Source of the DNA: Candidatus Hydrothermarchaeum profundi
Lineage (GTDB): Archaea > Hydrothermarchaeota > Hydrothermarchaeia > Hydrothermarchaeales > Hydrothermarchaeaceae
Assembly: GCA_002011125.2 (NCBI GenBank)
Contig: MTMF02000009.1
Coordinates: 904,989 to 968,988 of the forward strand
Length of the DNA: 64,000 nucleotides
Direction of reading: 5' to 3'
Shown: positions 346 to 37,743 of the stretch, piece by piece
Numbering within the stretch: position 1 is the stretch's first letter
How the letters are laid out: every line of letters begins with the position of its first letter
Notes under the pieces: generated by a model
The model's database searches: none
What the model was told of the DNA's origin: nothing
What the model saw: only the letters and a program-made list of their open reading frames with translations
Position numbers and translations under genes: made by a program

Positions 346-1869
346 ATGCTTGAGAGAAATGTGGTATTCAAAGATTTTCGGGATAAAATACGGGTTGCAT
401 TGGTCTATCCTAATAGCTATACTATTGGAATGGCTAATCTGGGGTTTAGGATTTTATATGACTTACTAAACTCTATGGAAAATGTTTACGCAGAGAGATT
501 TTTCCTTGATTTTAACAAAAGTTTAGAAACAAAGTCTGAACTTAAGGAATTTGAAATCATCGCATTTACCTGGCAGTTTGAGCTAGACGCTCTTAACATA
601 CTTGATATCTTATATAGGAATAAAATCCCTCTCAGGCGAGATAGGAGAAAGCAAGTGGTTATCGTAGGAGGTCCTTGTGCAGTAAACCCCTACCCGCTGA
701 AAAAATTTGTAGACTTCTTTTTCATCGGTGAGGCAGAAGAGAATCTTGTATCTTTTATAAACGATTTCTCTCGGGGGGGTGATATTTATTCTCTATCAAA
801 AATTGAAGGAGTCTACTCCTCTGAGTTGGATAATTATACGAGGAAGGTTTACGTAAGTGACTTGGATAGATATCATCCAATAAAGCAAATAATGTCTCCT
901 GAGGCCGCATTGGGAGAAAGTTTCTTACTAGAGGTTTCTAGGGGCTGTGGCAGAGGCTGTAGATTTTGTATGAGTGGATACACTTTTAGACCTCAAAGGG
1001 AGAGAAGTTTTGAAAGGTTGCAGGAAATAGCTGATCGAGGTATTGAAGCGTGCGCGTCAAGGAAAATTTCATTAATAGGTGCCAGTGCCTCGGATTACCC
1101 CCGGATAGAAGATCTTTGTGAGTATCTTTCGGCTAGGGGCGTAGGGCTATCAATACCCTCATTAAGAGCGGATTCTCTCACAGAGCCAATAGTTGAGGCG
1201 CTTGTTAAGACAGGACAGCGAAGCCTTACTCTCGCTCCAGAATCTAACTGGAGGTTGAGGACTCTAGTAAACAAGCCTATCGAAGATGAGGATATACTCA
1301 GAGCTTATAAGATGTCAATTGATAGGGGCATAAAGAATATAAAGCTATATCTGATGGTAGGCATACCTACTGAGACTTCCGAGGATTTAAATGAGCTTGT
1401 TGGCTTGATAAAGGAACTTAAGAAAATATCTGGTAGAGTAAGACTTAGCGTTAATCCACTTATACCTAAGCCTCATACGCCTTTCCAGTGGCTTGGTTTA
1501 GAAAAATTGAGCGATTTAAGAGAAAAAATAGAGGTACTAAAGAAAGCCCGGGTACAGATGGAGGTCGAGGACTTAAAAATGGCACATATTCAAGCTACTA
1601 TATCCCTAGGGGACGAAGGACTCTCGGATATCCTTGAAAAAGCTTACTTCTATGGAAAGGGCTTAGGAGCTTTTAGGAGAGCTTTCAAAGAAGAAGGCGT
1701 AGAGTTTGACTATTATATTAGGGGAAGAGATACATCTGAGATTCTCCCTTGGGAAAAGATTGATGTCGGAGTAAAGAAAAGTTTTTTAATTAGGGAGTTT
1801 AAGAAATCTTTTAAAGGAGAGGTAACGAGCATTTGCAGAGAAGGTTGCAGGGTCTGCGGTGTCTGCTAA
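346..1869 (+). CDS. Radical SAM protein (B12-binding-like N-terminus, YgiQ/TIGR03960-like)
   Basis: YPNSY.IGMANLG N-terminus, EVSRGCGRGCRFC CxxxCxxC motif, PKPHTPFQW, C-terminal CxxxCxxCxxC. Confidence 0.85.
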   Translation: MLERNVVFKDFRDKIRVALVYPNSYTIGMANLGFRILYDLLNSMENVYAERFFLDFNKSLETKSELKEFEIIAFTWQFELDALNILDILYRNKIPLRRDRRKQVVIVGGPCAVNPYPLKKFVDFFFIGEAEENLVSFINDFSRGGDIYSLSKIEGVYSSELDNYTRKVYVSDLDRYHPIKQIMSPEAALGESFLLEVSRGCGRGCRFCMSGYTFRPQRERSFERLQEIADRGIEACASRKISLIGASASDYPRIEDLCEYLSARGVGLSIPSLRADSLTEPIVEALVKTGQRSLTLAPESNWRLRTLVNKPIEDEDILRAYKMSIDRGIKNIKLYLMVGIPTETSEDLNELVGLIKELKKISGRVRLSVNPLIPKPHTPFQWLGLEKLSDLREKIEVLKKARVQMEVEDLKMAHIQATISLGDEGLSDILEKAYFYGKGLGAFRRAFKEEGVEFDYYIRGRDTSEILPWEKIDVGVKKSFLIREFKKSFKGEVTSICREGCRVCGVC

Positions 1870-1904
1870 GCCTTCCTTTACCTCTTGTTATAGTGTGGTT
1901 AGAA

Positions 1905-2219
1905 ATGAGAATTAGTTGGAGCGACTTCAAAAAAATGTTTCCGCACCTTGCTAAGGAATTAGAGGGGGAATGGATGCAGATAGAAGCCGTTAGGACGGAT
2001 TCATTAGAGGCTGAGAAAGCATATAGGGATGGACTTGAGGGCTATGATCCTACTGTTATAGATTTTCTTAGGAGATGTGATACTGAAGAGCAGGGATTAG
2101 AGATTATAGACTATATGAAGGAGAGGAAGGAGATATCTGAGAAATATGCCACGGAGTTGAAGGTTCAACTCCTTAGGAATGGTATAAGGAGCTTTGGTCC
2201 AAAAAGAGAGAGTTACTGA
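1905..2219 (+). CDS. DUF2095 family archaeal protein
   Basis: FKKMFPHLAKEL...GYDPTVIDFLRRCDTEE..LEIIDY..G.RSFG; start moved to ATG 1905. Confidence 0.75.
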   Translation: MRISWSDFKKMFPHLAKELEGEWMQIEAVRTDSLEAEKAYRDGLEGYDPTVIDFLRRCDTEEQGLEIIDYMKERKEISEKYATELKVQLLRNGIRSFGPKRESY

Positions 2220-2770
2220 GTGAGATATTCTATTAGTCCAGGGGTTATGAGTACTTTTTCATTGAAGACAACATATCCATAAGGCAGGACAATTGACTCG
2301 TTTTCGTTACTCTTTATCTCCACTTCTGAGGTTATCTCTATCTCTTCTAGTTTCATTCCAAGGTAAATCATCTTTGATACTAATACAGCTGAATCTATGG
2401 AGAGTTGGATTTTACCTAGGTTCCTCGCTCTGCTCCCTTTTGATTTTGTGGTAATTAGTTTTTTTGTCCTTCCCTTAGGTTTAAAGTATCCCAGTATGCC
2501 TCCTACCACTAGGGCTTTTGCCGAGGCAAAGTCCTCCGTGCATAGTTCTCTATCAGCTAGGGGGTCAAGTATGATTAGCTCACTGGGTTTAAATAATTCA
2601 TAAAAAGAGGATTTTTCGACCCTTCCAATTTTTGAGAGGATTTCCTTGTCTTTTTGAGATTTGACTCCGGTGAAAATCAAATTATCCCATATCTCAGATG
2701 TATTCTTGTATTCTAAATATAGCCACTCTGATACTGCAGGTTCGCAATGTTCTATAATCATAACTACCAT
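2213..2770 (-). CDS. SFM1-like SPOUT SAM-dependent methyltransferase (DUF431)
   Basis: IIEH.EP..SEW..LEY, LDP.A..EL, VGGILG, RNLG..QLSIDSA, LPYGY motifs. Confidence 0.75.
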   Translation of the reverse strand: MVVMIIEHCEPAVSEWLYLEYKNTSEIWDNLIFTGVKSQKDKEILSKIGRVEKSSFYELFKPSELIILDPLADRELCTEDFASAKALVVGGILGYFKPKGRTKKLITTKSKGSRARNLGKIQLSIDSAVLVSKMIYLGMKLEEIEITSEVEIKSNENESIVLPYGYVVFNEKVLITPGLIEYLTQ

Positions 2771-2868
2771 AACAAAAAATTAGAAATATATAAGAAATTA
2801 AAATGTTTTTTGTGTAACCAAAATTTATATATGCCATCCGCTGTTGTTAGAAGAAATAAGGTGTCCTA

Positions 2869-3501
2869 ATGTTTGACGGCTTTGGAAAACGGTTCTGGAA
2901 AAAGCTTTTGAGATTATTTAAAAGAAAGAAAATAATACAGCTAGGCTTTTATGGACCAGTAAACGCCGGAAAAACCACCCTTGCAAATCGAATATCTCTT
3001 GACTGGCTTGGAACAGAGGTGGGCACAGTTTCTGAGATTCCGCATGAGACCAGGCATGTCCAAAAGGTTGAGAACGTGAGAGTGGCTACCGACAATGGGG
3101 AGCTAAGAATGAATATAATTGATATGCCTGGAATAGCCACGCAAGTTGATTTTAAGAGCTTCCAAGAGTACGGTATGAGCGAGGAGGATGCTAAGGAAAG
3201 GGCAAAAGAAGCTACGAAGGGAGTGATAGAAGCTATAAAATGGTTAGATGATGTTGATGCAGTACTTATTGTGATGGACTCAACGGAGGATCCATATACC
3301 CAGGTGAATGTTACGATTATTGGAAATCTAGAGGCGAGGGGGATACCTGCTATAATTGTAGCCAATAAGATAGACGACGAAAGAGCATCGCCTTCAAGCA
3401 TAGAAAATGCGTTTCCACAGCATGTTGTCATTCCTATATCTGCGCGGACTGGTGAGAATCTAGACAAGCTTTATCAAGCTATTCAAGAGCATCTTACGTA
3501 G
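2869..3501 (+). CDS. oapA: Era-like GTPase, origin-associated protein A
   Basis: GPVNAGKTTLANRI, IPHETR, DMPG, ANKID; EATKGV.EAIKWL..DPY.QVN signature; followed by oapB and oapC. Confidence 0.9.
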   Translation: MFDGFGKRFWKKLLRLFKRKKIIQLGFYGPVNAGKTTLANRISLDWLGTEVGTVSEIPHETRHVQKVENVRVATDNGELRMNIIDMPGIATQVDFKSFQEYGMSEEDAKERAKEATKGVIEAIKWLDDVDAVLIVMDSTEDPYTQVNVTIIGNLEARGIPAIIVANKIDDERASPSSIENAFPQHVVIPISARTGENLDKLYQAIQEHLT

Positions 3502-29975: not shown

Positions 29976-31484
29976 GTGAAGAGTAATATTTTTCTCCCTA
30001 TTCTTATCCTCACTCTTACTTTTTCCGGAGTTAGTGCAGCAAGTTGGGTGCATTTAGATTATGACTGGGAGGGTGATGGTAATGATACAAGCACTATTGG
30101 AGTTGACCCTCCTCAGAAATGGGAAGGCTGTTTCGCATGTCATGAAAACGGAATATGGCCTGGTAAAACACGGATATGCGAAGACTGCCATTTAGAAGGC
30201 GGATTAGGGCCCTTTAATAGTACTGGGACAGGGGAACACTTCCAGTATAGGCTCAGAGAGGATTATAATGCTAGAAAAGTTTACCAGCATTATTTTGGTG
30301 CACCGGTAGGTGTTCCATCTCAAAGGATAAGCGGTGCAGCCGTAACTTCTTCAACATGTTTTGGATACAACAATAATACCGGCGAGGGTAGATGTCATGG
30401 CATATCAAGTGCGCATCCTATTGATGGATATTATTCTTTTGACACCAGTAAAACCCTTAATCAAAGTGACCCCTATACCTTTACTGTAAAAGAGCATCTC
30501 CCAGATACTAATAACTGCTTATACTGTCACAGGCAGGAAAATGAAACCATAAGAATAGCGTGGGGGAATGCGAGTTTTCTAGGAGATCATTATAATTCCA
30601 CGGATAACACAGACTGTTATAGTTGTCATGTTGAGAGGGGGGTTAAGCCTATTTCATTTCACAGAGTTATAGTTAAACTGGCAGAAGGTCAGTCCGAAGA
30701 GACCTCACTACCTATCATAGGAGGAGGGGGATCACCAGCTACCGTTGAATCTGATCCCTTTAAAAGCGGAGTTAGCATCCTAACTACGGAACTTCTAAGG
30801 CAGATTATTATAGAAAAAAACCTAAGGTATGCAGATACTTTTGATGGGCCAAAAACCCTGGTTGGTCCCCTTATATTACTTGGAATGTATCCAAATCCTG
30901 AGGATCCTGGAGCATTAAGGGCTATGGCAAAAACCTCAGAAAAAATTCGAGAAGATGTATACAACATATCTGCCTATAGAGTCCTACAAAAATTCGATTC
31001 AACTGACTCACTAATTTTAGCGAGAGGAGACCTAGAAGTTGACTCTATGGCTGCTATCGCATACGCTAAGTCTGCGGGAATCCCGATATTACTAACTCGT
31101 CCAACCGATTTGCCTCGAAGTACCCTTAGTGCGATATCAAAGTTAAATCCAAAAAAGATCATAATAGTAGGGGGCCCAGTTGCTGTTTCTAAGGAAGTTG
31201 AAACAGCACTAGCGTCTATCGCTAAAGTAGAAAGAATCCAAGGGAAGAACCGTGTTGAAACGTCAATCGAGATTGCAAAGAGATCTTCTTCCAGTATTAT
31301 AGTTATTACTAGCGCTGCTTTCCCGAGCACAGACGCAGCCTTTATATCCTATATCTATGGAGCTCCGATTATATACGTCGATCCCACTGGCCCTTCTAAC
31401 GCTGTGAAAGAATACTTTTCCTCGCTTAGAGGGGTGAAAGTAGTATTAGTGGGCGTGGATACCGAATTACTTAAAGAACTATAG
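29976..31484 (+). CDS. Multiheme cytochrome c fused to cell-wall-binding repeat 2 (CWB2)-like domains
   Basis: Signal peptide; 4 CxxCH plus CX11CH; ARGD..VDS+AA..YA....PILLT..LP, IIIVGGPVAVS, ERI.G.NR.ETS. Confidence 0.82.
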   Translation: MKSNIFLPILILTLTFSGVSAASWVHLDYDWEGDGNDTSTIGVDPPQKWEGCFACHENGIWPGKTRICEDCHLEGGLGPFNSTGTGEHFQYRLREDYNARKVYQHYFGAPVGVPSQRISGAAVTSSTCFGYNNNTGEGRCHGISSAHPIDGYYSFDTSKTLNQSDPYTFTVKEHLPDTNNCLYCHRQENETIRIAWGNASFLGDHYNSTDNTDCYSCHVERGVKPISFHRVIVKLAEGQSEETSLPIIGGGGSPATVESDPFKSGVSILTTELLRQIIIEKNLRYADTFDGPKTLVGPLILLGMYPNPEDPGALRAMAKTSEKIREDVYNISAYRVLQKFDSTDSLILARGDLEVDSMAAIAYAKSAGIPILLTRPTDLPRSTLSAISKLNPKKIIIVGGPVAVSKEVETALASIAKVERIQGKNRVETSIEIAKRSSSSIIVITSAAFPSTDAAFISYIYGAPIIYVDPTGPSNAVKEYFSSLRGVKVVLVGVDTELLKEL

Positions 31485-31635: not shown

Positions 31636-34600
31636 ATGTCTATAATCAAAATAGCCGCAATATTAGTTATCCTTGCTTTGCTGTTATCGGCTGGAGATGC
31701 GTATGCAGCTCAGATTAATGAATCTACCGGTCCAGGAGGCTATGGCTGGCAGCAGGTATATGATGTCCCTCCAGGTGCCAAAACAACTGCGGTAACTGCT
31801 ACCAGAATAACAGGTTCTGCAGATAGGAAGTACTACGACTATGGATACAAAAAGATTCAGATCTCAGGGAGATATGAAAACTATTGGTCAACCGACTCTG
31901 GATGGTGGTATGTAAGTGGAACATCTCCAAACATCTATATAACAATATATGATAATGCTAGCAATGTTGTTGTTGGTCCTGATCTAGGCGTTTCTACTAC
32001 AAGAGGCTTGGGCACATACAATTATACGTGGGGATCAAGCTCTAACGAAACGCCTGGAGAGTGGACAGTACTAGTTAGAAACCAATCATCGCCAACGGGG
32101 TCTATAGTAGCTCAGTTCAAAATATTTGTGCGTGGGCAGTTGAATGTTACTGCGATATCAGTAAACTCCACATCTCCCAGAGTTGGAGATACATTGCTAA
32201 TCAATGCAACCCTTAAAGATCATACAAACGCTCTTGTAGGGAGCACCTCTCTTGGTTCTGGGCAGGTTACAGCGTATATTGTTGGGCCAGGAGAAAATTC
32301 TGAGGTTGCCCTTTCGGATGCAGATGATGATGGTTACTGGACCGGAGAGTTCACCCCAAATACCTATGGAGATTATATCATTGTCGTCAAAGCAACAGAT
32401 GGCCATAATAAGTGGATTGATGGCAGAGGAAGCCAGAAAATAGCAGTCACAGGTAGTTTTCCATCTTCATTTTTCGGGTCACTCTTTAGGGGAATAATAG
32501 GATTATTTATCGTTTTTTGGCTGTTGAGGAGTTCTACAAAAAAAAAGTTTAGTATCTTTTTTATTATAGCGTTGCTGATTCTCGTCGGAGGGGTAAGTGC
32601 TATAGATACCGGGAGATATAACATATCTAAGCCTAATTTAGAGATAGAAGGCTCTACTACTGCAAATCAACTTGACTCAACAGCGCGGGGATGCATCACT
32701 AGTGTAGATAATTCTTCATGCCATCTTAGGGACAATAATTTTGGTACAGGAGACTATCAACAAAGAGGGACAACAGATTTGAGTGGGGTAACTCATCCAG
32801 GTGCTAATAGAGATGTAGCAGGTTTTTTTCCAGACTGGGTGCATATGCATCATGGCGGTAGCAATTGGCCGCAGTGGTATTGGGATATAACAGGGACGAC
32901 CGGTAACGATGCTAGTGGACTGGCCAATATAACGTCTCCAAGGGTAAGTAGTTTGGCGAAAGGTAATGGCGATGCGCAGATAGGATCTGGCTTTGACGCG
33001 GCATTTAATAGAACGCATTATGATGCAGATAGAGACGCATATGAATCCTTGCCTTTTCTAGGTCAGCCCTACGATATTGGAGGAAATAATCCTCAAATGC
33101 CAAAAAGCTGTACGTATGGCGCACAACCAGCGTTGGGAGGTGTTGCAGAGCCTTTCCCCGATCAAGAATCTCTAGGATGTCACGGTACTAGAGAGTTAGG
33201 AGATACTCTAGCTAGAGATTACCCGAGAAGCGATAATGTGAACTGTACTGATTGTCATGGCTCTATAACCGTTCAAAGCACCAATACGAAGCATGGTAGT
33301 GTTGCAGGTGCAAATTGCACATCATGCCATAATGCATACTATAATAGTAGTGTTTCCAAATACCAGTTAGATGGTTCTACTAATATAACAGTATATTATT
33401 GTGCAAACTCGACTTGCCATCAATCTTCTGTAATTACTCCATTAAACACTTCATATCTACATGCTGGAAGAGACTGCCGCTATTGTCATGGTCATGGCCA
33501 TAATATAACAAGCACACCAAAAAGCACTCCCTCTCTGTGGTGGAATACTACCTGCGGGAGTCAAGACGATACGTGCCATGGTAGCGGGGCGCCTTCTCCG
33601 AGAAATGTAGGTGTAGTGCAACATAATGTGACAAACCCCTTCTCGTCACCGCCCAATTGTACCGATTGCCATTCTTATACTTCGTCTGCTCATAACGTAT
33701 CCTCTATACCAGCATGTAGCAAATGTCACAACACTACTTCTACTTGGGGAAAAGCAAGAGCAAATCAGAGTGTACCCAACTGGATAAGCTCACAGACAAA
33801 TAACATGACTCATGGCGACCTTGGTAGAGGAAATAGAAGCAATCTCTCCTGCAACTTCTGTCATAATGATACTAGCTATCATTTTCCTGGATATAGAAAT
33901 ACCAACTATGAGACACAGGGATGTAATAATACTTTATGTCATGGTAATGCAAGTAGTTCTCTCATGGCAAGCAATCTGACTCAGATAAACCGTAGTCATT
34001 CTAATCTAAATTGCAAAGCATGTCACAACAACCAGACTATTTATAGCGAGTCTAGTAATAAGACTTTGGGACCTATAACTATAGATACGAATATACATGC
34101 AAGTAATTCATCTTGGCTAATACCCTTCAATGTTACTACTAGAGGATATGTTACGAACACAACATGCCTGAACTGCCATAACAACAGAACCTATATAGAT
34201 CAAAGTCTAAATTGCACTGGGTGTCATGGGATAAATGGCAAGTTAAATGTCCATACAGATCTTAATGTTGAAGCAACTGTTGGAGACGGCATCCACAATA
34301 CTGGAGACTGTGGCGCATGCCACGCTGATCCATCAAGAGATATTTTCGTTAATTTTTCTGCGGTGAATGAGAGTGTTCATCGTAACTTGAATGTGAATGC
34401 CTCGAATTCTACGCCTTTGTCTTGGGGTAATGTTACTAAGGCGTGTTGGGCTTGTCATGGTAATGGCTCGCAGCCTAGTGGGCATCCGAGTAATTATAAG
34501 ACGCCTTGGAACTGTACTTATTGTCATACCCGTAATGCCTCTGGTCTGGGTAATTTTTCTGCTCCCTTGGTGTATGAGCATTTTGATAATGAGAGTACGC

Positions 34601-37600
34601 TGGTGAATATTGATATTAATGTCTCGGTTGGCTGTGTGGATTGTCATAATAATAGTGTTGTGGATGCTAATGACACCTTGTATAGGTCTATTGTTCAGAC
34701 TGGGAGGTCTAATGTCTCGCATTATGGTTCTAGTAGTGGTCTTTTGCCTGGTGGTCAGCCTTCTCGTAATTGTACGGCTTGTCATAGGAATCAGACTACC
34801 GCGAAGACTTGGGGGATCCGGGATAGGTATCCTTTCACTAATAATATCTTTGGTAATCGTACTATTAGGCATTCTGGGAATGAGACTAACTCTGATGATT
34901 CCACGTATTGTGTGAAGTGTCATAATACTTCTACGTCTTCTTCTGGCTTTTTTGACGGTAGCCCGGATGTGAGCTTGCTTGTTAATCTGCATTCTGAGCA
35001 GCTTTTTGGGGCTACGCCTCCGGGTAAGGTTGCTAGCGTGCACTTTTATTTTGACTGGGAGGGTGATGATTCTGCTGAGTATCCTCCTGGTAATGGTAGC
35101 GTGGAGAATAAGGCTTATGAGAGTTGTCCGGCTTGTCATAATAATACTGGTCTTACTGGTGAGGGTGCGGATGCTGCTAATGCGAAGGTTTGTGAGGATT
35201 GTCACGTGATTAATGAGTCTCTCGGTAAGCCTAATGGCCCTTATCCTGGCCCTGTTGGGCCTTCGGGTCCCTTGGTGAATAAGTTTGTGTTGAGGTCTGA
35301 TTATGATAATGCCTCTGTTCCTGTGGTGAAGGAGCATATTAACGCTACAGACTACTACACTGGAACCGAGATAAATGTCACTACTAATCTTTCTGAGATA
35401 TTTGGCAGTACCTTGAAGCGTTCTACTTCTTGTGTCGGCTATAATGCTACCTCTGGCGAGGGAAGCTGTCATGGCGTCTCATGGGAGTTTAGGGGTAGTG
35501 CTGGAAGCTTTTTCGCTTTTAATAGGAATAGGAGCGTGAATGAGTCTAATGCTACTTATCATTATCAGCTTATCGTTGACTATTTGCCTGACACCCGGAA
35601 CTGTACCTTCTGCCATCTTAGCACGGATGAGAACCTTAGAAAAGCCTGGGGAAACGCCACATATATACCAAATAGTACTGTTAGGGCTCACAATGAAACA
35701 AGTAATTCTCAGTGCTATGATTGTCATGCAGGTGGAACAGCTCCATATAATTTCCATACTACTTCAGTTAATCCTGGAATAGGTGGGGCAGACTGTGGAT
35801 CAGCAGGGTGCCATGCGGATTCTTCGAAAAATATCTGGGTTAATTTTTCTGCGGTGAATGAGAGTGTTCATCGTAACTTGAATGTGAATGCCTCGAATTC
35901 TACGCCTTTGTCTTGGGGTAATGTTACTAAGGCGTGTTGGGCTTGTCATGGTAATGGCTCGCAGCCTAGTGGGCATCCGAGTAATTATAAGACGCCTTGG
36001 AACTGTACTTATTGTCATACCCGTAATGCCTCTGGTCTGGGTAATTTTTCTGCTCCCTTGGTGTATGAGCATTTTGATAATGAGAGTACGCTGGTGAATA
36101 TTGATATTAATGTCTCGGTTGGCTGTGTGGATTGTCATAATAATAGTGTTGTGGATGCTAATGACACCTTGTATAGGTCTATTGTTCAGACTGGGAGGTC
36201 TAATGTCTCGCATTATGGTTCTAGTAGTGGTCTTTTGCCTGGTGGTCAGCCTTCTCGTAATTGTACGGCTTGTCATAGGAATCAGACTACCGCGAAGACT
36301 TGGGGGATCCGGGATAGGTATCCTTTCACTAATAATATCTTTGGTAATCGTACTATTAGGCATTCTGGGAATGAGACTAACTCTGATGATTCCACGTATT
36401 GTGTGAAGTGTCATAATACTTCTACGTCTTCTTCTGGCTTTTTTGACGGTAGCCCGGATGTGAGCTTGCTTGTTAATCTGCATTCTGAGCAGCTTTTTGG
36501 GGCTACGCCTCCGGGTAAGGTTGCTAGCGTGCACTTTTATTTTGACTGGGAGGGTGATGATTCTGCTGAGTATCCTCCTGGTAATGGTAGCGTGGAGAAT
36601 AAGGCTTATGAGAGTTGTCCGGCTTGTCATAATAATACTGGTCTTACTGGTGAGGGTGCGGATGCTGCTAATGCGAAGGTTTGTGAGGATTGTCACGTGA
36701 TTAATGAGTCTCTCGGTAAGCCTAATGGCCCTTATCCTGGCCCTGTTGGGCCTTCGGGTCCCTTGGTGAATAAGTTTGTGTTGAGGTCTGATTATGATAA
36801 TGCCTCTGTTCCTGTGGTGAAGGAGCATATTAACGCTACAGACTACTACACTGGAACCGAGATAAATGTCACTACTAATCTTTCTGAGATATTTGGCAGT
36901 ACCTTGAAGCGTTCTACTTCTTGTGTCGGCTATAATGCTACCTCTGGCGAGGGAAGCTGTCATGGCGTCTCATGGGAGTTTAGGGGTAGTGCTGGAAGCT
37001 TTTTCGCTTTTAATAGGAATAGGAGCGTGAATGAGTCTAATGCTACTTATCATTATCAGCTTATCGTTGACTATTTGCCTGACACCCGGAACTGTACCTT
37101 CTGCCATCTTAGCACGGATGAGAACCTTAGAAAAGCCTGGGGAAACGCCACATATATACCAAATAGTACTAAGCAGTCACATTCAACATCTCTAACTAAC
37201 ACAGAGTGTTATGGCTGTCATACCGAGGATAATCAAGCCCCATACAATTTCCATAGCGCTACACTAGCAACCACTAATTGTAGAGGATGTCATTTTAGTT
37301 GGACAACCATGAATAATACGAAGAACGCACCTACTAAATACGTCAATCAGACTCTTTTCAATACGAGCGTGCACGGTAATAGTTCTGTGATAGATTGTCA
37401 AGACTGTCATACAGGAAGCCATGGGACCTTTGAATCTGGTGGTGGTCCAGAAGAGTACACCTGGAAGTGGTGTGAATGTTGTCATACGGTTATGCCTACC
37501 TATGCAAATAAAACTCCAATAATTTCAACTGGGATAGGATTGAGACACAATTTGACGCGAAAGCCCCAATACCTCTATTATAATATATCAGGCACACTTC

Positions 37601-37743
37601 AAACTCCTCTAGAGATAACGACTTGTACGACTTGTCATGATTCGACGCTTTATAACAACGCTAAGGCTAATTTCAACCGTTCTGCCTCAAAGGATTGTAC
37701 CTACTGCCATCCTTTCCCAGATAAACTGCCAGGAGGGGACTAA
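31636..37743 (+). CDS. Large multiheme cytochrome c (2035 aa) fused behind an Ig-like/TM module
   Basis: GGAGG SD; 33 CxxCH (hand count) plus 3 CX4CH, CX6CH, CX8CH, 2 CX11CH and CX22CH; two internal hydrophobic segments near aa 280-325. Confidence 0.92.
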   Translation: MSIIKIAAILVILALLLSAGDAYAAQINESTGPGGYGWQQVYDVPPGAKTTAVTATRITGSADRKYYDYGYKKIQISGRYENYWSTDSGWWYVSGTSPNIYITIYDNASNVVVGPDLGVSTTRGLGTYNYTWGSSSNETPGEWTVLVRNQSSPTGSIVAQFKIFVRGQLNVTAISVNSTSPRVGDTLLINATLKDHTNALVGSTSLGSGQVTAYIVGPGENSEVALSDADDDGYWTGEFTPNTYGDYIIVVKATDGHNKWIDGRGSQKIAVTGSFPSSFFGSLFRGIIGLFIVFWLLRSSTKKKFSIFFIIALLILVGGVSAIDTGRYNISKPNLEIEGSTTANQLDSTARGCITSVDNSSCHLRDNNFGTGDYQQRGTTDLSGVTHPGANRDVAGFFPDWVHMHHGGSNWPQWYWDITGTTGNDASGLANITSPRVSSLAKGNGDAQIGSGFDAAFNRTHYDADRDAYESLPFLGQPYDIGGNNPQMPKSCTYGAQPALGGVAEPFPDQESLGCHGTRELGDTLARDYPRSDNVNCTDCHGSITVQSTNTKHGSVAGANCTSCHNAYYNSSVSKYQLDGSTNITVYYCANSTCHQSSVITPLNTSYLHAGRDCRYCHGHGHNITSTPKSTPSLWWNTTCGSQDDTCHGSGAPSPRNVGVVQHNVTNPFSSPPNCTDCHSYTSSAHNVSSIPACSKCHNTTSTWGKARANQSVPNWISSQTNNMTHGDLGRGNRSNLSCNFCHNDTSYHFPGYRNTNYETQGCNNTLCHGNASSSLMASNLTQINRSHSNLNCKACHNNQTIYSESSNKTLGPITIDTNIHASNSSWLIPFNVTTRGYVTNTTCLNCHNNRTYIDQSLNCTGCHGINGKLNVHTDLNVEATVGDGIHNTGDCGACHADPSRDIFVNFSAVNESVHRNLNVNASNSTPLSWGNVTKACWACHGNGSQPSGHPSNYKTPWNCTYCHTRNASGLGNFSAPLVYEHFDNESTLVNIDINVSVGCVDCHNNSVVDANDTLYRSIVQTGRSNVSHYGSSSGLLPGGQPSRNCTACHRNQTTAKTWGIRDRYPFTNNIFGNRTIRHSGNETNSDDSTYCVKCHNTSTSSSGFFDGSPDVSLLVNLHSEQLFGATPPGKVASVHFYFDWEGDDSAEYPPGNGSVENKAYESCPACHNNTGLTGEGADAANAKVCEDCHVINESLGKPNGPYPGPVGPSGPLVNKFVLRSDYDNASVPVVKEHINATDYYTGTEINVTTNLSEIFGSTLKRSTSCVGYNATSGEGSCHGVSWEFRGSAGSFFAFNRNRSVNESNATYHYQLIVDYLPDTRNCTFCHLSTDENLRKAWGNATYIPNSTVRAHNETSNSQCYDCHAGGTAPYNFHTTSVNPGIGGADCGSAGCHADSSKNIWVNFSAVNESVHRNLNVNASNSTPLSWGNVTKACWACHGNGSQPSGHPSNYKTPWNCTYCHTRNASGLGNFSAPLVYEHFDNESTLVNIDINVSVGCVDCHNNSVVDANDTLYRSIVQTGRSNVSHYGSSSGLLPGGQPSRNCTACHRNQTTAKTWGIRDRYPFTNNIFGNRTIRHSGNETNSDDSTYCVKCHNTSTSSSGFFDGSPDVSLLVNLHSEQLFGATPPGKVASVHFYFDWEGDDSAEYPPGNGSVENKAYESCPACHNNTGLTGEGADAANAKVCEDCHVINESLGKPNGPYPGPVGPSGPLVNKFVLRSDYDNASVPVVKEHINATDYYTGTEINVTTNLSEIFGSTLKRSTSCVGYNATSGEGSCHGVSWEFRGSAGSFFAFNRNRSVNESNATYHYQLIVDYLPDTRNCTFCHLSTDENLRKAWGNATYIPNSTKQSHSTSLTNTECYGCHTEDNQAPYNFHSATLATTNCRGCHFSWTTMNNTKNAPTKYVNQTLFNTSVHGNSSVIDCQDCHTGSHGTFESGGGPEEYTWKWCECCHTVMPTYANKTPIISTGIGLRHNLTRKPQYLYYNISGTLQTPLEITTCTTCHDSTLYNNAKANFNRSASKDCTYCHPFPDKLPGGD
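34348..35679 (+). repeat. Direct repeat copy 1 (1332 bp, period 1491 bp)
   Basis: Appears identical to 35839-37170; 159-bp unique spacer; in frame. Confidence 0.93.
35839..37170 (+). repeat. Direct repeat copy 2 (1332 bp)
   Basis: Appears identical to 34348-35679. Confidence 0.93.

Follow-up and report, generated by a model that had tools for sequence, protein, structure and literature searches.

GC-biased gene conversion (gBGC) acts as a neutral drive only where heteroduplex forms, and pushes silent sites to an extreme composition in sharp compositional islands. In these respects it resembles what was found in Candidatus Hydrothermarchaeum profundi, where a tract within a cytochrome gene proved to be one of about a dozen "keto-dialect islands" of 0.2–2 kb in the chromosome. 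gBGC favours G and C on both strands, whereas these islands favour T and G on one strand, which is set by replication. Since their third codon positions hold.10–.12 C and.50–.62 T and mirror tracts lie on the other strand, gBGC in the sense of a strand-symmetric enrichment of G and C was rejected.

Concerted evolution of paralogues by gene conversion has reportedly been described in prokaryotes in one study, and another is reported to treat conversion among the genome copies of a polyploid archaeon. The islands share with prokaryotic concerted evolution the 100% identical central tracts, the diverged paralogous flanks and the presence of both tandem and dispersed pairs, but ordinary conversion copies the codon usage of the donor, whereas the present tracts carry a dialect absent from the rest of either gene. 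Fungal repeat-induced point mutation, which turns C into T on both strands and destroys genes, is likewise a directional base change linked to duplicated DNA; here, in contrast, the change is strand-specific and adenine-centred, and the proteins are intact. The template repeats of diversity-generating retroelements are adenine-specific, with A concentrated at codon positions 1 and 2, and both properties recur in the islands. These differ in being 10 times longer, in having neither a reverse transcriptase nor a template/variable pair that differs at A, and in the existence of mirror tracts.

The remaining parallel is the mutational asymmetry of replication. In a NucS-dependent bacterium the wild-type leading strand is reported to show A>G 48 against T>C 13, and C>T 67 against G>A 40, and the published account attributes this to the asymmetry of EndoMS (PMC6159521). 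As in the islands, the leading strand is enriched in T and G at the expense of A and C, and the A>G skew exceeds that of C>T (PMC6159521). Known replication skews extend over whole genomes and are a few percent in size, whereas in the islands A falls from.31–.33 to 0–.02 over 0.2–2 kb, and the sharp edges of the islands match those of the identity tracts between paralogues. An ordinary replication strand skew, modest and genome-wide, was therefore set aside for the islands (A about 0).

The cytochrome gene and its adenine-free repeat

The window analysed is a 64,000-nucleotide stretch of the genome. The gene at 31636–37743 (+ strand) specifies a multiheme c-type cytochrome of 2035 aa with 33 CxxCH motifs, 115 N-glycosylation sequons (NxS/T) and cytochrome domains, namely the MtrC/MtrF domain II/IV (Mtrc-MtrF_II-IV_dom; E 4.5e-21) and Cytochrome_C7 (E 1e-19 and 3e-21), all above cut-offs. 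It holds an exact tandem repeat of 1332 nt with a period of 1491, copy 1 at 34348–35679 and copy 2 at 35839–37170 (both + strand). The diverged junction between the units (35680–35838, + strand) has ordinary codon usage (frequency of A at third positions, A3,.28 over 35680–35829), and its last 30 nt (35809–35838) are a diverged homologue of 34318–34347.

The earlier note had reported 333 consecutive codons without NNA at 34348–35346 and in the copy at 35839–36837. This was confirmed, and three codons were added upstream, giving 336 codons with 0 NNA at 34339–35346 and 35830–36837 (+ strand), in which third positions are T.62, G.28 and C.10. With the same protein sequence and the codon usage of the whole genome, such a tract should hold 81 NNA codons (P for no NNA = 10^-45.6). 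In the rest of the gene third positions are A.23–.27, T.40, C.18 and G.15–.17. The codon choices and the retention of A at positions 1 and 2 (.29 and.33) were also as described: Lys is AAG in 10/10, Glu GAG in 13/13 and Gln CAG in 5/5 cases, and four-fold sites hold 96 T, 46 G, 17 C and 0 A. The loss of A3 begins 9 nt before the identity boundary, in keeping with the claimed onset at the left edge of the repeat. The claimed fading over the last 330 bp needs refinement, the tail being a mosaic: the adenine-poor continuation of copy 1 (35347–35637, + strand; 7 NNA in 97 codons) has all 7 NNA in its first 53 codons and then 44 codons without any (35506–35637), and is followed by 6 NNA in the final 14 codons of the repeat. 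The adenine-poor tract thus spans 34339 to about 35637 (7 NNA in 433 codons) and so has nearly the same extent as the identity tract; in copy 2 this state extends to about 37128.

Two long antisense ORFs, of 379 aa over copy 1 (34333–35472, − strand) and 387 aa over copy 2 (35800–36963, − strand), are by-products of the loss of A3, because without A at the sense third position the in-register antisense frame cannot hold a stop codon. No Pfam family was found in the 379-aa ORF.

An assembly or polishing artefact, or the chimeric join for which the earlier note had allowed, can be virtually dismissed as the source of the tract, even though the genome is assembled in multiple contigs and repeats are prone to error. 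Such an error cannot respect codon phase while keeping the CxxCH motifs, and the same dialect is carried by a second genome (G019). Independent de Bruijn contigs from two public runs of different studies (X1 and X2) moreover reproduce the sequence, the joints and the two-fold depth. In X1 the repeat lies on one 1332-nt unitig of its own (depth 129 against 54–69 in the flanks), and in X2 on two unitig pieces (189 and 184 against 91–93). The junction unitig (35650–35868) is at about single depth (85 in X1, 95 in X2), and flank unitigs in both runs cross the joint between normal codon usage and the dialect. A repeat at twice the flank depth in contigs from two runs is not a chimera.

A 20-nt patch at 35363–35382 (+ strand) is polymorphic, with 10 differences in X1 that remove both NNA codons of the patch and cause 5 amino-acid changes; in X2 the unitigs end at the corresponding position of copy 2. 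The genome contains no donor for the patch as it stands in the reference when up to 6 mismatches in 27 nt are allowed. A relative in a further run (X4; about 85–90% identical) shows 13 third-position differences in the tract, only 1 of them a change to A.

Recurrence in the chromosome and in relatives

Open runs of at least 80 codons without A3 number 14 genome-wide, against 4 without C3, 1 without G3 and 2 without T3. Dialect tracts on contig C9 include two copies of a 5-heme cytochrome (1841–1844k), an S-layer-like internal duplication (1824–1826k), the C-terminal modules of a giant protein and of its neighbour (1125k and 1127k), a pair at 1028k, PAS modules (1532k, 1742k and 568k) and the whole mtmC-mtmB operon (mtmCB; 1885.1–1887.2k; A3 about 1%). 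Mirror tracts were found in a cytochrome tandem repeat at 1632k (T3.02–.06) and in a GAF module pair at 373k and 1010k. The tract proteins are functionally unrelated to one another, and no gene family was common to the 10 tract neighbourhoods.

Eleven chromosomal identity tracts between paralogues were compared. Ten of them are no shorter than 120 nt and at least 97% identical, and the eleventh is a 269-nt core, exact in both members, of the pair at 1532k and 1742k. The dialect or its mirror is clear in 8, two lean that way (A3.16 and.09) and one does not. Where the dialect is clear, third positions rank T>G>C>A with 0–6% A, and in the mirror A>C>G>T; at four-fold sites the same ranks hold in 10/10 in-frame tracts (G019 included) and in 2/2 mirror tracts. 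In most clear pairs the dialect and identity tracts share their boundaries in both members, in the GAF pair only in part; in the window repeat the offsets are 9 and 42 nt. The dialect therefore coincides with tracts in which paralogues, whether tandem or dispersed, stay identical through concerted evolution by gene conversion, and the purge of the window repeat is shared by other identical repeats, a point the earlier note had proposed to check.

The dialect also persists through sequence divergence. The homologous module of G019, which belongs to another family, has 39% amino-acid identity and a local GC of 47%, with A3.01, T3.64 and G3.30 over 300 codons and ordinary usage thereafter. A directional process tied to repeats, as the earlier note had suggested, is to this extent supported in its general form. 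Its tie to repeats is looser than supposed: mtmCB, with 674 codons, and the 74-codon tract at 568k are single-copy and have no identical partner in the genome. Repeats are thus not strictly required, which agrees in part with the refuting condition of the earlier note. In mtmCB the dialect runs from about the start codon to about 10 codons before the stop, and the mtmC-mtmB spacer is 76% G+T by manual count, several A being kept in its first half. The 568k tract and a normal-dialect paralogue differ at 8/43 and 13/60 protein residues, equally inside and outside the tract (manual count), and the silent differences mostly take the form A>G, A>T or C>T; from this comparison the dialect of 568k would seem to have arisen in situ.

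A reverse-transcription step had been raised in the earlier note, with a suggestion to look for the gene. A DGR-like adenine-specific reverse transcriptase that copies the module via RNA would fit the adenine-specific effect, its place on the coding strand in most tracts and the retention of A at positions 1 and 2. No PF00078 match was obtained in the 97.65% complete genome, whereas the control gave matches in 3/14 genomes. The copies are identical over 1332 nt rather than different at A sites, the tracts reach 2 kb, C is depleted as well in the order T>G>C, and mirror tracts occur on the coding strand. This step is already largely refuted and very improbable, and a diversity-generating retroelement proper was rejected for want of a reverse transcriptase gene and of template/variable repeats differing at adenines.

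The purged strand carries the leading-strand sequence

Cumulative GC and keto skew, the latter a check proposed in the earlier note, have a minimum near 470–480 kb and a maximum near 1550 kb on contig C9, which is not a closed chromosome, and the orientation of the tracts follows them. A strong Orc1/Cdc6 gene (482.7 kb; E 3e-33) lies at the skew minimum. A second, weak Cdc6-like gene at 1871.8 kb, where there is no skew minimum, could mark a second origin. Although only 52% of genes are leading (864 against 806 lagging), the clear adenine-free units away from the terminus are on leading-strand genes in 8/8 cases (0.517^8 = 0.005), and the 1632k mirror tract and the 1010k copy are on lagging-strand genes. 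The purged strand is thus the leading-strand sequence, i.e. the template of lagging-strand synthesis, and genes on the other strand show the mirror order A>C>G>T. As in replication strand skew, the sign switches at origin and terminus, with one exception, the GAF mirror tract at 373k on the "wrong" replichore, which can be accounted for only if it was recently copied from the 1010k tract.

Four-fold sites are T.370, G.171, C.153 and A.306 in leading-strand genes, and T.335, G.145, C.182 and A.338 in lagging-strand genes. The island dialect is an extreme form of this weak skew of the genome itself, the background difference being 3–4 points, whereas A drops to about 0 within the sharply bounded islands.

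Selection on codon choice, in which avoidance of NNA frees translation from U34 tRNAs or slows it deliberately, would explain why the purge is essentially confined to silent sites, replacement-site A not being lost (29 A losses against 37 A gains at MtmCB replacement sites relative to the nearest homologues), why it spans the coding regions of mtmCB, and why Arg AGG is kept (AGG:CGG 46:6 in tracts, 84:16 genome-wide), the silent A at Arg position 1 thus escaping. The tracts, however, cover parts of genes and stop abruptly at the limits of identity, the proteins have unrelated functions, and the mirror tracts follow the DNA strand and not the mRNA. Leu first positions are shifted as well (TTG:CTG 78:18 in tracts against 60:40 genome-wide; CTA+CTC in 9/10 Leu codons of mirror tracts), so the bias acts on nucleotides and not on wobble decoding. 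Codon selection is accordingly improbable. The translational bias of highly expressed genes was ruled out, since ribosomal-protein genes (cluster at 1406.9–1418.6 kb) and those of EF-2/EF-1alpha show the opposite preference (A3.30–.47).

The polarity bears equally on the proposal that the module came from a replicon with extreme G+T skew. Modules imported by homologous recombination from such a replicon or lineage, and then spread between paralogues, would account for the sharp boundaries within genes; the patch polymorphism with its amino-acid changes resembles exchange between diverged alleles, the single-copy mtmCB is in dialect over nearly its whole length, and the assembly contains a strongly skewed 37-kb one-strand contig (C18). 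That contig is C-poor and not A-poor (A3.20–.59). No A3 below.05 with T-rich third positions was found among 261 MtmB/MtmC matches in species-representative genomes or 86 in metagenome contigs, the nearest MtmB (83–84% amino-acid identity) having A3.27–.31, and no relatives of the module were found in viral contigs, plasmids or phages, the earlier note having suggested a search of extrachromosomal elements. Import does not predict an orientation that tracks host replication (p about 0.005), and the boundaries common to both members of most clear pairs and the equal divergence of the 568k protein inside and outside its tract also speak against it. A horizontally acquired island was rejected for lack of a donor or relatives of the same composition among the 261 and 86 homologues, and foreign origin in general is quite unlikely.

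A proposed role for mismatch correction and biased conversion

That a strand-specific adenine purge marks almost all recently homogenised duplicates of this genome speaks for a directional process, so far undescribed, that is linked to gene conversion and to the direction of replication. Our preferred explanation, held tentatively and slightly short of probable, is a replication-polarised biased conversion or mutation inside concertedly evolving tracts, filtered by protein selection; of the options in the earlier note, biased conversion and strand-specific mutagenesis remain. Inter-paralogue conversion cannot be the whole story, because mtmCB and the 568k tract have no identical partner.

EndoMS is reported to act strongly on G/T, G/G and T/T mismatches, moderately on T/C and poorly on A/G, whereas A/C, A/A and C/C escape it (PMC4838380). 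The genome encodes a NucS homologue (PF01939 match at C8:104791-105090, E 4e-23, in a 253-aa frame). The order T>G>C>A, in 10/10 tracts and mirrored in 2/2, matches the mismatch blind spots given for EndoMS/NucS (PMC4838380), the prediction having been derived post hoc. We infer a mechanistic link from EndoMS/NucS to the dialect, with the polarity of the heteroduplex assumed. Repeated recombination or fork template switching inside the tracts would form heteroduplex of fixed polarity, or error-prone synthesis would take place there. On correction by EndoMS/NucS, changes from A or C to G or T on the purged strand would escape and the reverse changes would be destroyed. Long repetition under protein selection would let this strand-specific biased conversion or mutation empty the silent sites of adenine, and the loss itself would serve no function. 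NucS occurs widely among archaea and actinobacteria, and we know of no report of anything like these islands there, so something else must make the effect extreme here.

Several observations run against the preferred explanation. The GAF mirror tract at 373k is on an unexpected replichore; Arg AGG is kept, though the model predicts A-to-C drift at Arg position 1; MtmCB replacement sites show no loss of A, where a very strong nucleotide pressure might leak into protein composition; and A persists in the first half of the mtmC-mtmB spacer.

Damage to single-stranded DNA, with no role for EndoMS, is an unlikely alternative. Under it the tracts would be places where forks often break or where break-induced replication or gap repair is common, and the leading-sequence strand, left exposed there, would suffer deamination and depurination, protein selection leaving silent changes only. 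Such damage agrees with a polarity that follows replication, with T as the sink, with the coincidence of the tracts with recombination tracts and with the genome-wide skew of the same sign. Cytosine deaminates far faster than adenine, and C would be expected to be purged before A (T>G>A>C), whereas C exceeds A in 10/10 tracts and A is near zero. Damage also meets the same mtmCB and Arg difficulties as biased conversion.

It is possible, though on balance doubtful, that a keto-favouring, strand-specific form of biased gene conversion operates in the archaea of this order, in which EndoMS/NucS blind spots on replication-polarised heteroduplex rewrite all silent sites of segments exchanged by paralogues as T>G>C>A and so remove adenine. 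If true, this would be a prokaryotic, strand-polarised counterpart of gBGC, a molecular drive that leaves the protein untouched, and the islands would be a readable genomic footprint of the location and direction of recombination.

The cytochrome gene and its repeat

The window specifies, at 31636–37743 on the forward strand, a 2035 amino acid multiheme cytochrome possessing 33 CxxCH motifs and 115 N-glycosylation sequons, which by Pfam belongs to the MtrC/MtrF-like and c7-type multiheme cytochromes. At 32480–32620 (approximately residues 283–325) a hydrophobic, anchor-like segment and the basic residues after it lead straight into a second segment, which resembles a signal peptide; the reading frame may comprise two genes read as one, or its real start may lie further downstream. 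The ORF immediately upstream (29976–31484; 502 amino acids) is paralogous to the repeat module's C-terminal half, at 36% identity.

Two copies of an exact repeat are present on the forward strand at 34348–35679 and 35839–37170. The sequence on both sides is homologous but diverged, which is the signature of a gene-conversion tract within an older tandem duplication. The associated adenine-free tract (34339–35346 and 35830–36837, forward strand) contains not one codon with A in third position (NNA); the 333-codon run described in the earlier note is real, and in-frame reading extends it to 336 codons per copy. Its third positions are T.62, G.28, C.10 and A 0, against A.23–.27 in the remainder of the gene, while A is normal at codon positions 1 and 2 (.29 and.33). 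Given the amino acid sequence and genome-wide codon usage, approximately 81 NNA codons are expected among the 336, and the probability of finding none is 10^-45.6. The bias does begin essentially at the left edge of the repeat, as had been claimed, but it does not fade over the last 330 bp: the last third is a mosaic, with seven NNA in 53 codons, then 0 in 44, then 6 in 14. The adenine-poor tract (34339 to approximately 35637) and the identity tract (34348–35679) therefore nearly coincide. An overlapping antisense gene was considered and rejected. None of the ORFs concerned, whether antisense or shifted (379, 433 and 108 amino acids), has a Pfam family, and they are judged a by-product, since an open frame requires the avoidance of merely three of the 16 NNA codons.

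The contigs of two public sequencing runs from different studies, X1 and X2, one of which may be the source of the assembly, were examined for this region. In both, the repeat lies on its own unitig or unitigs at about twice the depth of its flanks: a single 1332-nt unitig in X1 (depth 129 vs 54–69) and two pieces in X2 (189/184 vs 91–93). A 219-nt junction unitig is at about single depth (85 in X1, 95 in X2), and the joint of ordinary and adenine-free codons is spanned by flank unitigs. These contigs reproduce the repeat structure and reveal no chimeric join of the kind considered in the earlier note; the adenine-free repeat is no artefact. Among the runs listed for the sequence, none was of RNA. 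X1 differs from the window solely in a 20-nt patch (35363–35382) with 10 changes, through which both NNA codons of the patch are lost and five residues altered. No donor for the reference version of this patch was discovered in the genome.

Adenine-poor tracts elsewhere in the genome

When the 2.19-Mb assembly was scanned in all six frames, 14 open runs of 80 codons or more lacked A in third position, compared with 4, 1 and 2 lacking C, G and T, respectively. Apart from the two copies in the window, the same composition (third positions in the order T>G>C>A, with A near 0) is found in two copies of a 5-heme cytochrome, which are separated by 1639 nt and share 683 nt at 100% identity; the genes downstream of them are diverged and ordinary in codon usage. 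Runs without A in third position (A3) also occur in an S-layer-like protein with an internal duplication of 990 nt, in a 351-nt module found both at the C-terminal end of a giant protein and in the neighbor of that protein, and throughout the mtmC-mtmB operon, whose products are a corrinoid protein and, with an in-frame TAG in its gene, a monomethylamine methyltransferase. A relaxed filter added a pair at 1028k (kb position on contig C9, as below) and PAS modules at 568k and 1532k/1742k. It also gave two mirror images (A>C>G>T). One is a tandem repeat of 336 nt in a different cytochrome, with third positions A.44, C.40, G.10 and T.06; the other is a GAF module of 259 nt that two histidine kinases 636 kb apart have in common.

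The earlier note had proposed that other identical repeats be tested for the same purge. Eleven chromosomal identity tracts were compared, ten selected at ≥97% identity over ≥120 nt and the eleventh being the exact 269-nt core of the 1532k/1742k pair. Eight of the 11 clearly show the adenine-free or the mirror composition, two lean towards it (A3.16 and.09), and one does not. The exception is an exact 476-nt dispersed repeat (C9:1475556–1476031 and 1858437–1858912) containing a GC3-rich ORF of 148 amino acids. All-against-all blastp of 145 neighboring ORFs from 10 loci gave no gene family common to these loci.

Several genes at these loci deserve separate mention. The giant protein is a single ORF of approximately 10,835 amino acids (C9:1094345–1126852) with 560 NxS/T sequons in the surrounding frame, and its C-terminal module is an adenine-free identity tract. 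The mtmB gene has one TAG (C9:1885872–1885874, reverse strand; 1872–1874 of the locus) between parts of 203 and 257 amino acids, as expected for the pyrrolysine codon of a monomethylamine methyltransferase. A second mtmB-like gene (33–36% identity) lies at approximately 1059.7–1061.0 kb. Two TFIIB (TFB) paralogs (C9:494283–495236 and 557711–558631), 94% identical over 930 nt, show a third odd silent-site composition, with C3.35–.37, T3.10–.13 and stretches having T3.02 and A3.15.

Across the genome A3 per gene has a mean of.33 (sd.058), and the other low-A3 genes are exclusively GC3-rich integrases and the like. These GC3-rich genes were tried as a model of high expression and discarded, being integrases and other probably mobile genes that are unrelated. 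Translational optimisation was tested as the cause of the tracts, but the ribosomal protein and elongation factor genes have A3 of.30–.47, and the tracts take up portions of genes. Nor does wobble decoding alone account for them: the silent first position of leucine codons shifts too (TTG:CTG 78:18 in the tracts vs 60:40 genome-wide), CTA and CTC make up nine of the 10 leucine codons in the mirror tracts, and the mtmC-mtmB spacer is 76% G+T.

The origin of the module from a foreign replicon of extreme skew, one of the ideas in the earlier note, is not supported. No donor of such composition was found, and searches of viral contigs, plasmids and phages gave no relatives of the module. Of the MtmB/MtmC matches, 261 from species-representative genomes and 86 from metagenome contigs, none has both low A3 and T-rich third positions, and the nearest MtmB homologs (83–84% amino acid identity, in MAGs labelled Candidatus Hadarchaeota) have A3 of.27–.31. 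The skewed 37-kb contig C18 of this genome is C-poor, not A-poor. That contig (1–37034) has 37 of its 40 called genes on one strand, C.242 vs G.125 on the forward strand and some genes with C3 of.01–.08, and may be an extrachromosomal element or virus. The 568k tract and its ordinary paralog at 1903k show the same protein divergence inside and outside the tract (8/43 vs 13/60 residues), and most of the silent differences between them take the form A>G, A>T or C>T. A reverse-transcription step, also suggested earlier, is rejected: no PF00078 match was detected in a genome that is 97.65% complete, the copies are identical, and mirror tracts exist.

Replication polarity and a proposed link to EndoMS/NucS

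Cumulative GC and keto skew of contig C9, which is not a closed chromosome, gave a minimum at approximately 470–480 kb and a maximum at approximately 1550 kb. A strong Orc1/Cdc6 match lies at 482.7 kb, and together these positions indicate that the forward strand is the leading strand between minimum and maximum. Sliding keto skew on raw DNA was too noisy because purine-rich coding regions interfere. A weak second Cdc6-like match (E 9e-5; C9:1871820–1871993) is situated at 1871.8 kb, far from the skew minimum and with no minimum of its own; it may mark a gene for a second origin-binding protein.

Genes are divided nearly equally between the leading (864) and lagging (806) strands. All eight clear adenine-free units away from the terminus are on leading-strand genes (0.517^8 = 0.005): 568k, 939k, 1028k and 1125k on the forward strand and 1742k, 1824k, 1842k and 1886k on the reverse. 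The 1632k mirror tract and the 1010k GAF copy are on lagging-strand genes, so that in these two, as in the eight units, A is missing from the leading-strand sequence. The 373k GAF copy violates this rule, since a direct pair on opposite replichores must have one rule-breaking member. The tracts at 1532k and 1566k agree with it and were not counted, being too close to the terminus. The remaining genome shows the same bias weakly, the four-fold sites of leading-strand genes having T.370, G.171, C.153 and A.306, and those of lagging-strand genes T.335, G.145, C.182 and A.338.

At four-fold sites every one of the 10 in-frame tracts ranks T>G>C>A, and the two mirror tracts both rank A>C>G>T. The 1028k pair and the 1566k tandem, being out of frame, are left out of this count, and their composition was taken from the identity-tract comparison. 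The EndoMS/NucS of Thermococcus is reported to cleave G/T, G/G and T/T mismatches best and T/C moderately, with poor or no cleavage of A/G, A/A, A/C and C/C (PMC4838380). We infer that the tracts may be linked to this enzyme, a homolog of which is encoded in the genome. Mismatches in the tracts would always have the leading-sequence strand, as single-stranded lagging-strand template, on one side. On that strand, replacement of A or C by G or T would go via an invisible mismatch and the reverse changes via a well-cleaved one, while C>A and T>G would pass through the moderate T/C, and A>C and G>T through the poor A/G. On the assumed strand these specificities would give the hierarchy T>G>C>A, matching that observed, although the argument was derived post hoc with the data already seen. 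In wild-type mutation-accumulation lines of a NucS-dependent bacterium, leading-strand counts are given as 48 A>G vs 13 T>C and 67 C>T vs 40 G>A, which the authors credit to EndoMS asymmetry (PMC6159521). Pure single-strand damage is a possible model; it predicts that C is purged ahead of A, which is not seen.

Archaeal RadA prefers TGG-repeat DNA. RecA is described as having the same preference (PMC3763553). A preference of this kind could favor the G+T-rich strand as a substrate for recombination and thereby strengthen the tie to conversion.

Some observations count against an EndoMS/NucS drive. Neither the mtmCB operon nor the 568k tract has a partner in the genome, arginine AGG is not replaced by CGG (46:6), and there is no net loss of A at MtmCB replacement sites (29 lost, 37 gained). 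Furthermore, NucS is common, yet such islands are unreported. The directional, repeat-linked process envisaged in the earlier note finds support in the form of a replication-polarised, conversion-linked drive, which belongs as a variant with the known phenomena of biased gene conversion, replication skew and concerted evolution.

Relatives, age and significance

Close orthologs of the module were found in none of the species-representative genomes, metagenome contigs or viral contigs searched, the best match among 35 genomes of the order having 46% amino acid identity. In members of the same family the S-layer-like gene and the 5-heme gene have homologs of only 28–34% identity, and the query used brought up no MtmB there. 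Among the loci recovered by protein searches, the composition occurs outside this genome in one match, G019, a genome of another family in the same order. Its homologous C-terminal cytochrome module (39% amino acid identity; local GC 47%) lies at the start of a contig, the first 300 codons of which have A3.01, C3.05, G3.30 and T3.64, and it switches to ordinary usage at the position corresponding to the end of the window's repeat. A second copy of this tract was not assembled, just a 37-nt patch being found in a paralog. A small cytochrome gene of G019, akin to the 502-residue ORF upstream of the window's gene, shares a near-identical 37-nt patch with the adenine-free module of that genome. 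In a relative approximately 85–90% identical, seen in the sequencing run X4, only one of 13 third-position differences in the tract is to A. X4 is a marine metagenome in which short contigs, approximately 85–90% identical to parts of the module (window 35867–36384), reach depths of 1500–3500, indicating that a close relative is very abundant there. The adenine-poor state is old and maintained.

A silent-site composition so extreme and local falls outside standard codon-usage theory, and searches of open-access full texts gave no description of such tracts. The islands mimic horizontal transfer in compositional screens, yield long spurious antisense ORFs and break short-read assemblies; they could also mark replication direction and conversion tracts in metagenome-assembled genomes. 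If the reading of a replication-polarised, conversion-linked drive holds, the tracts would amount to a natural archive of repair coupled to recombination in an archaeal lineage that is uncultured. They would show that the specificity of mismatch repair can carry changes to fixation at hundreds of sites, that the replication fork gives the drive its orientation, and that nearly all recent duplications of a genome can bear its mark.
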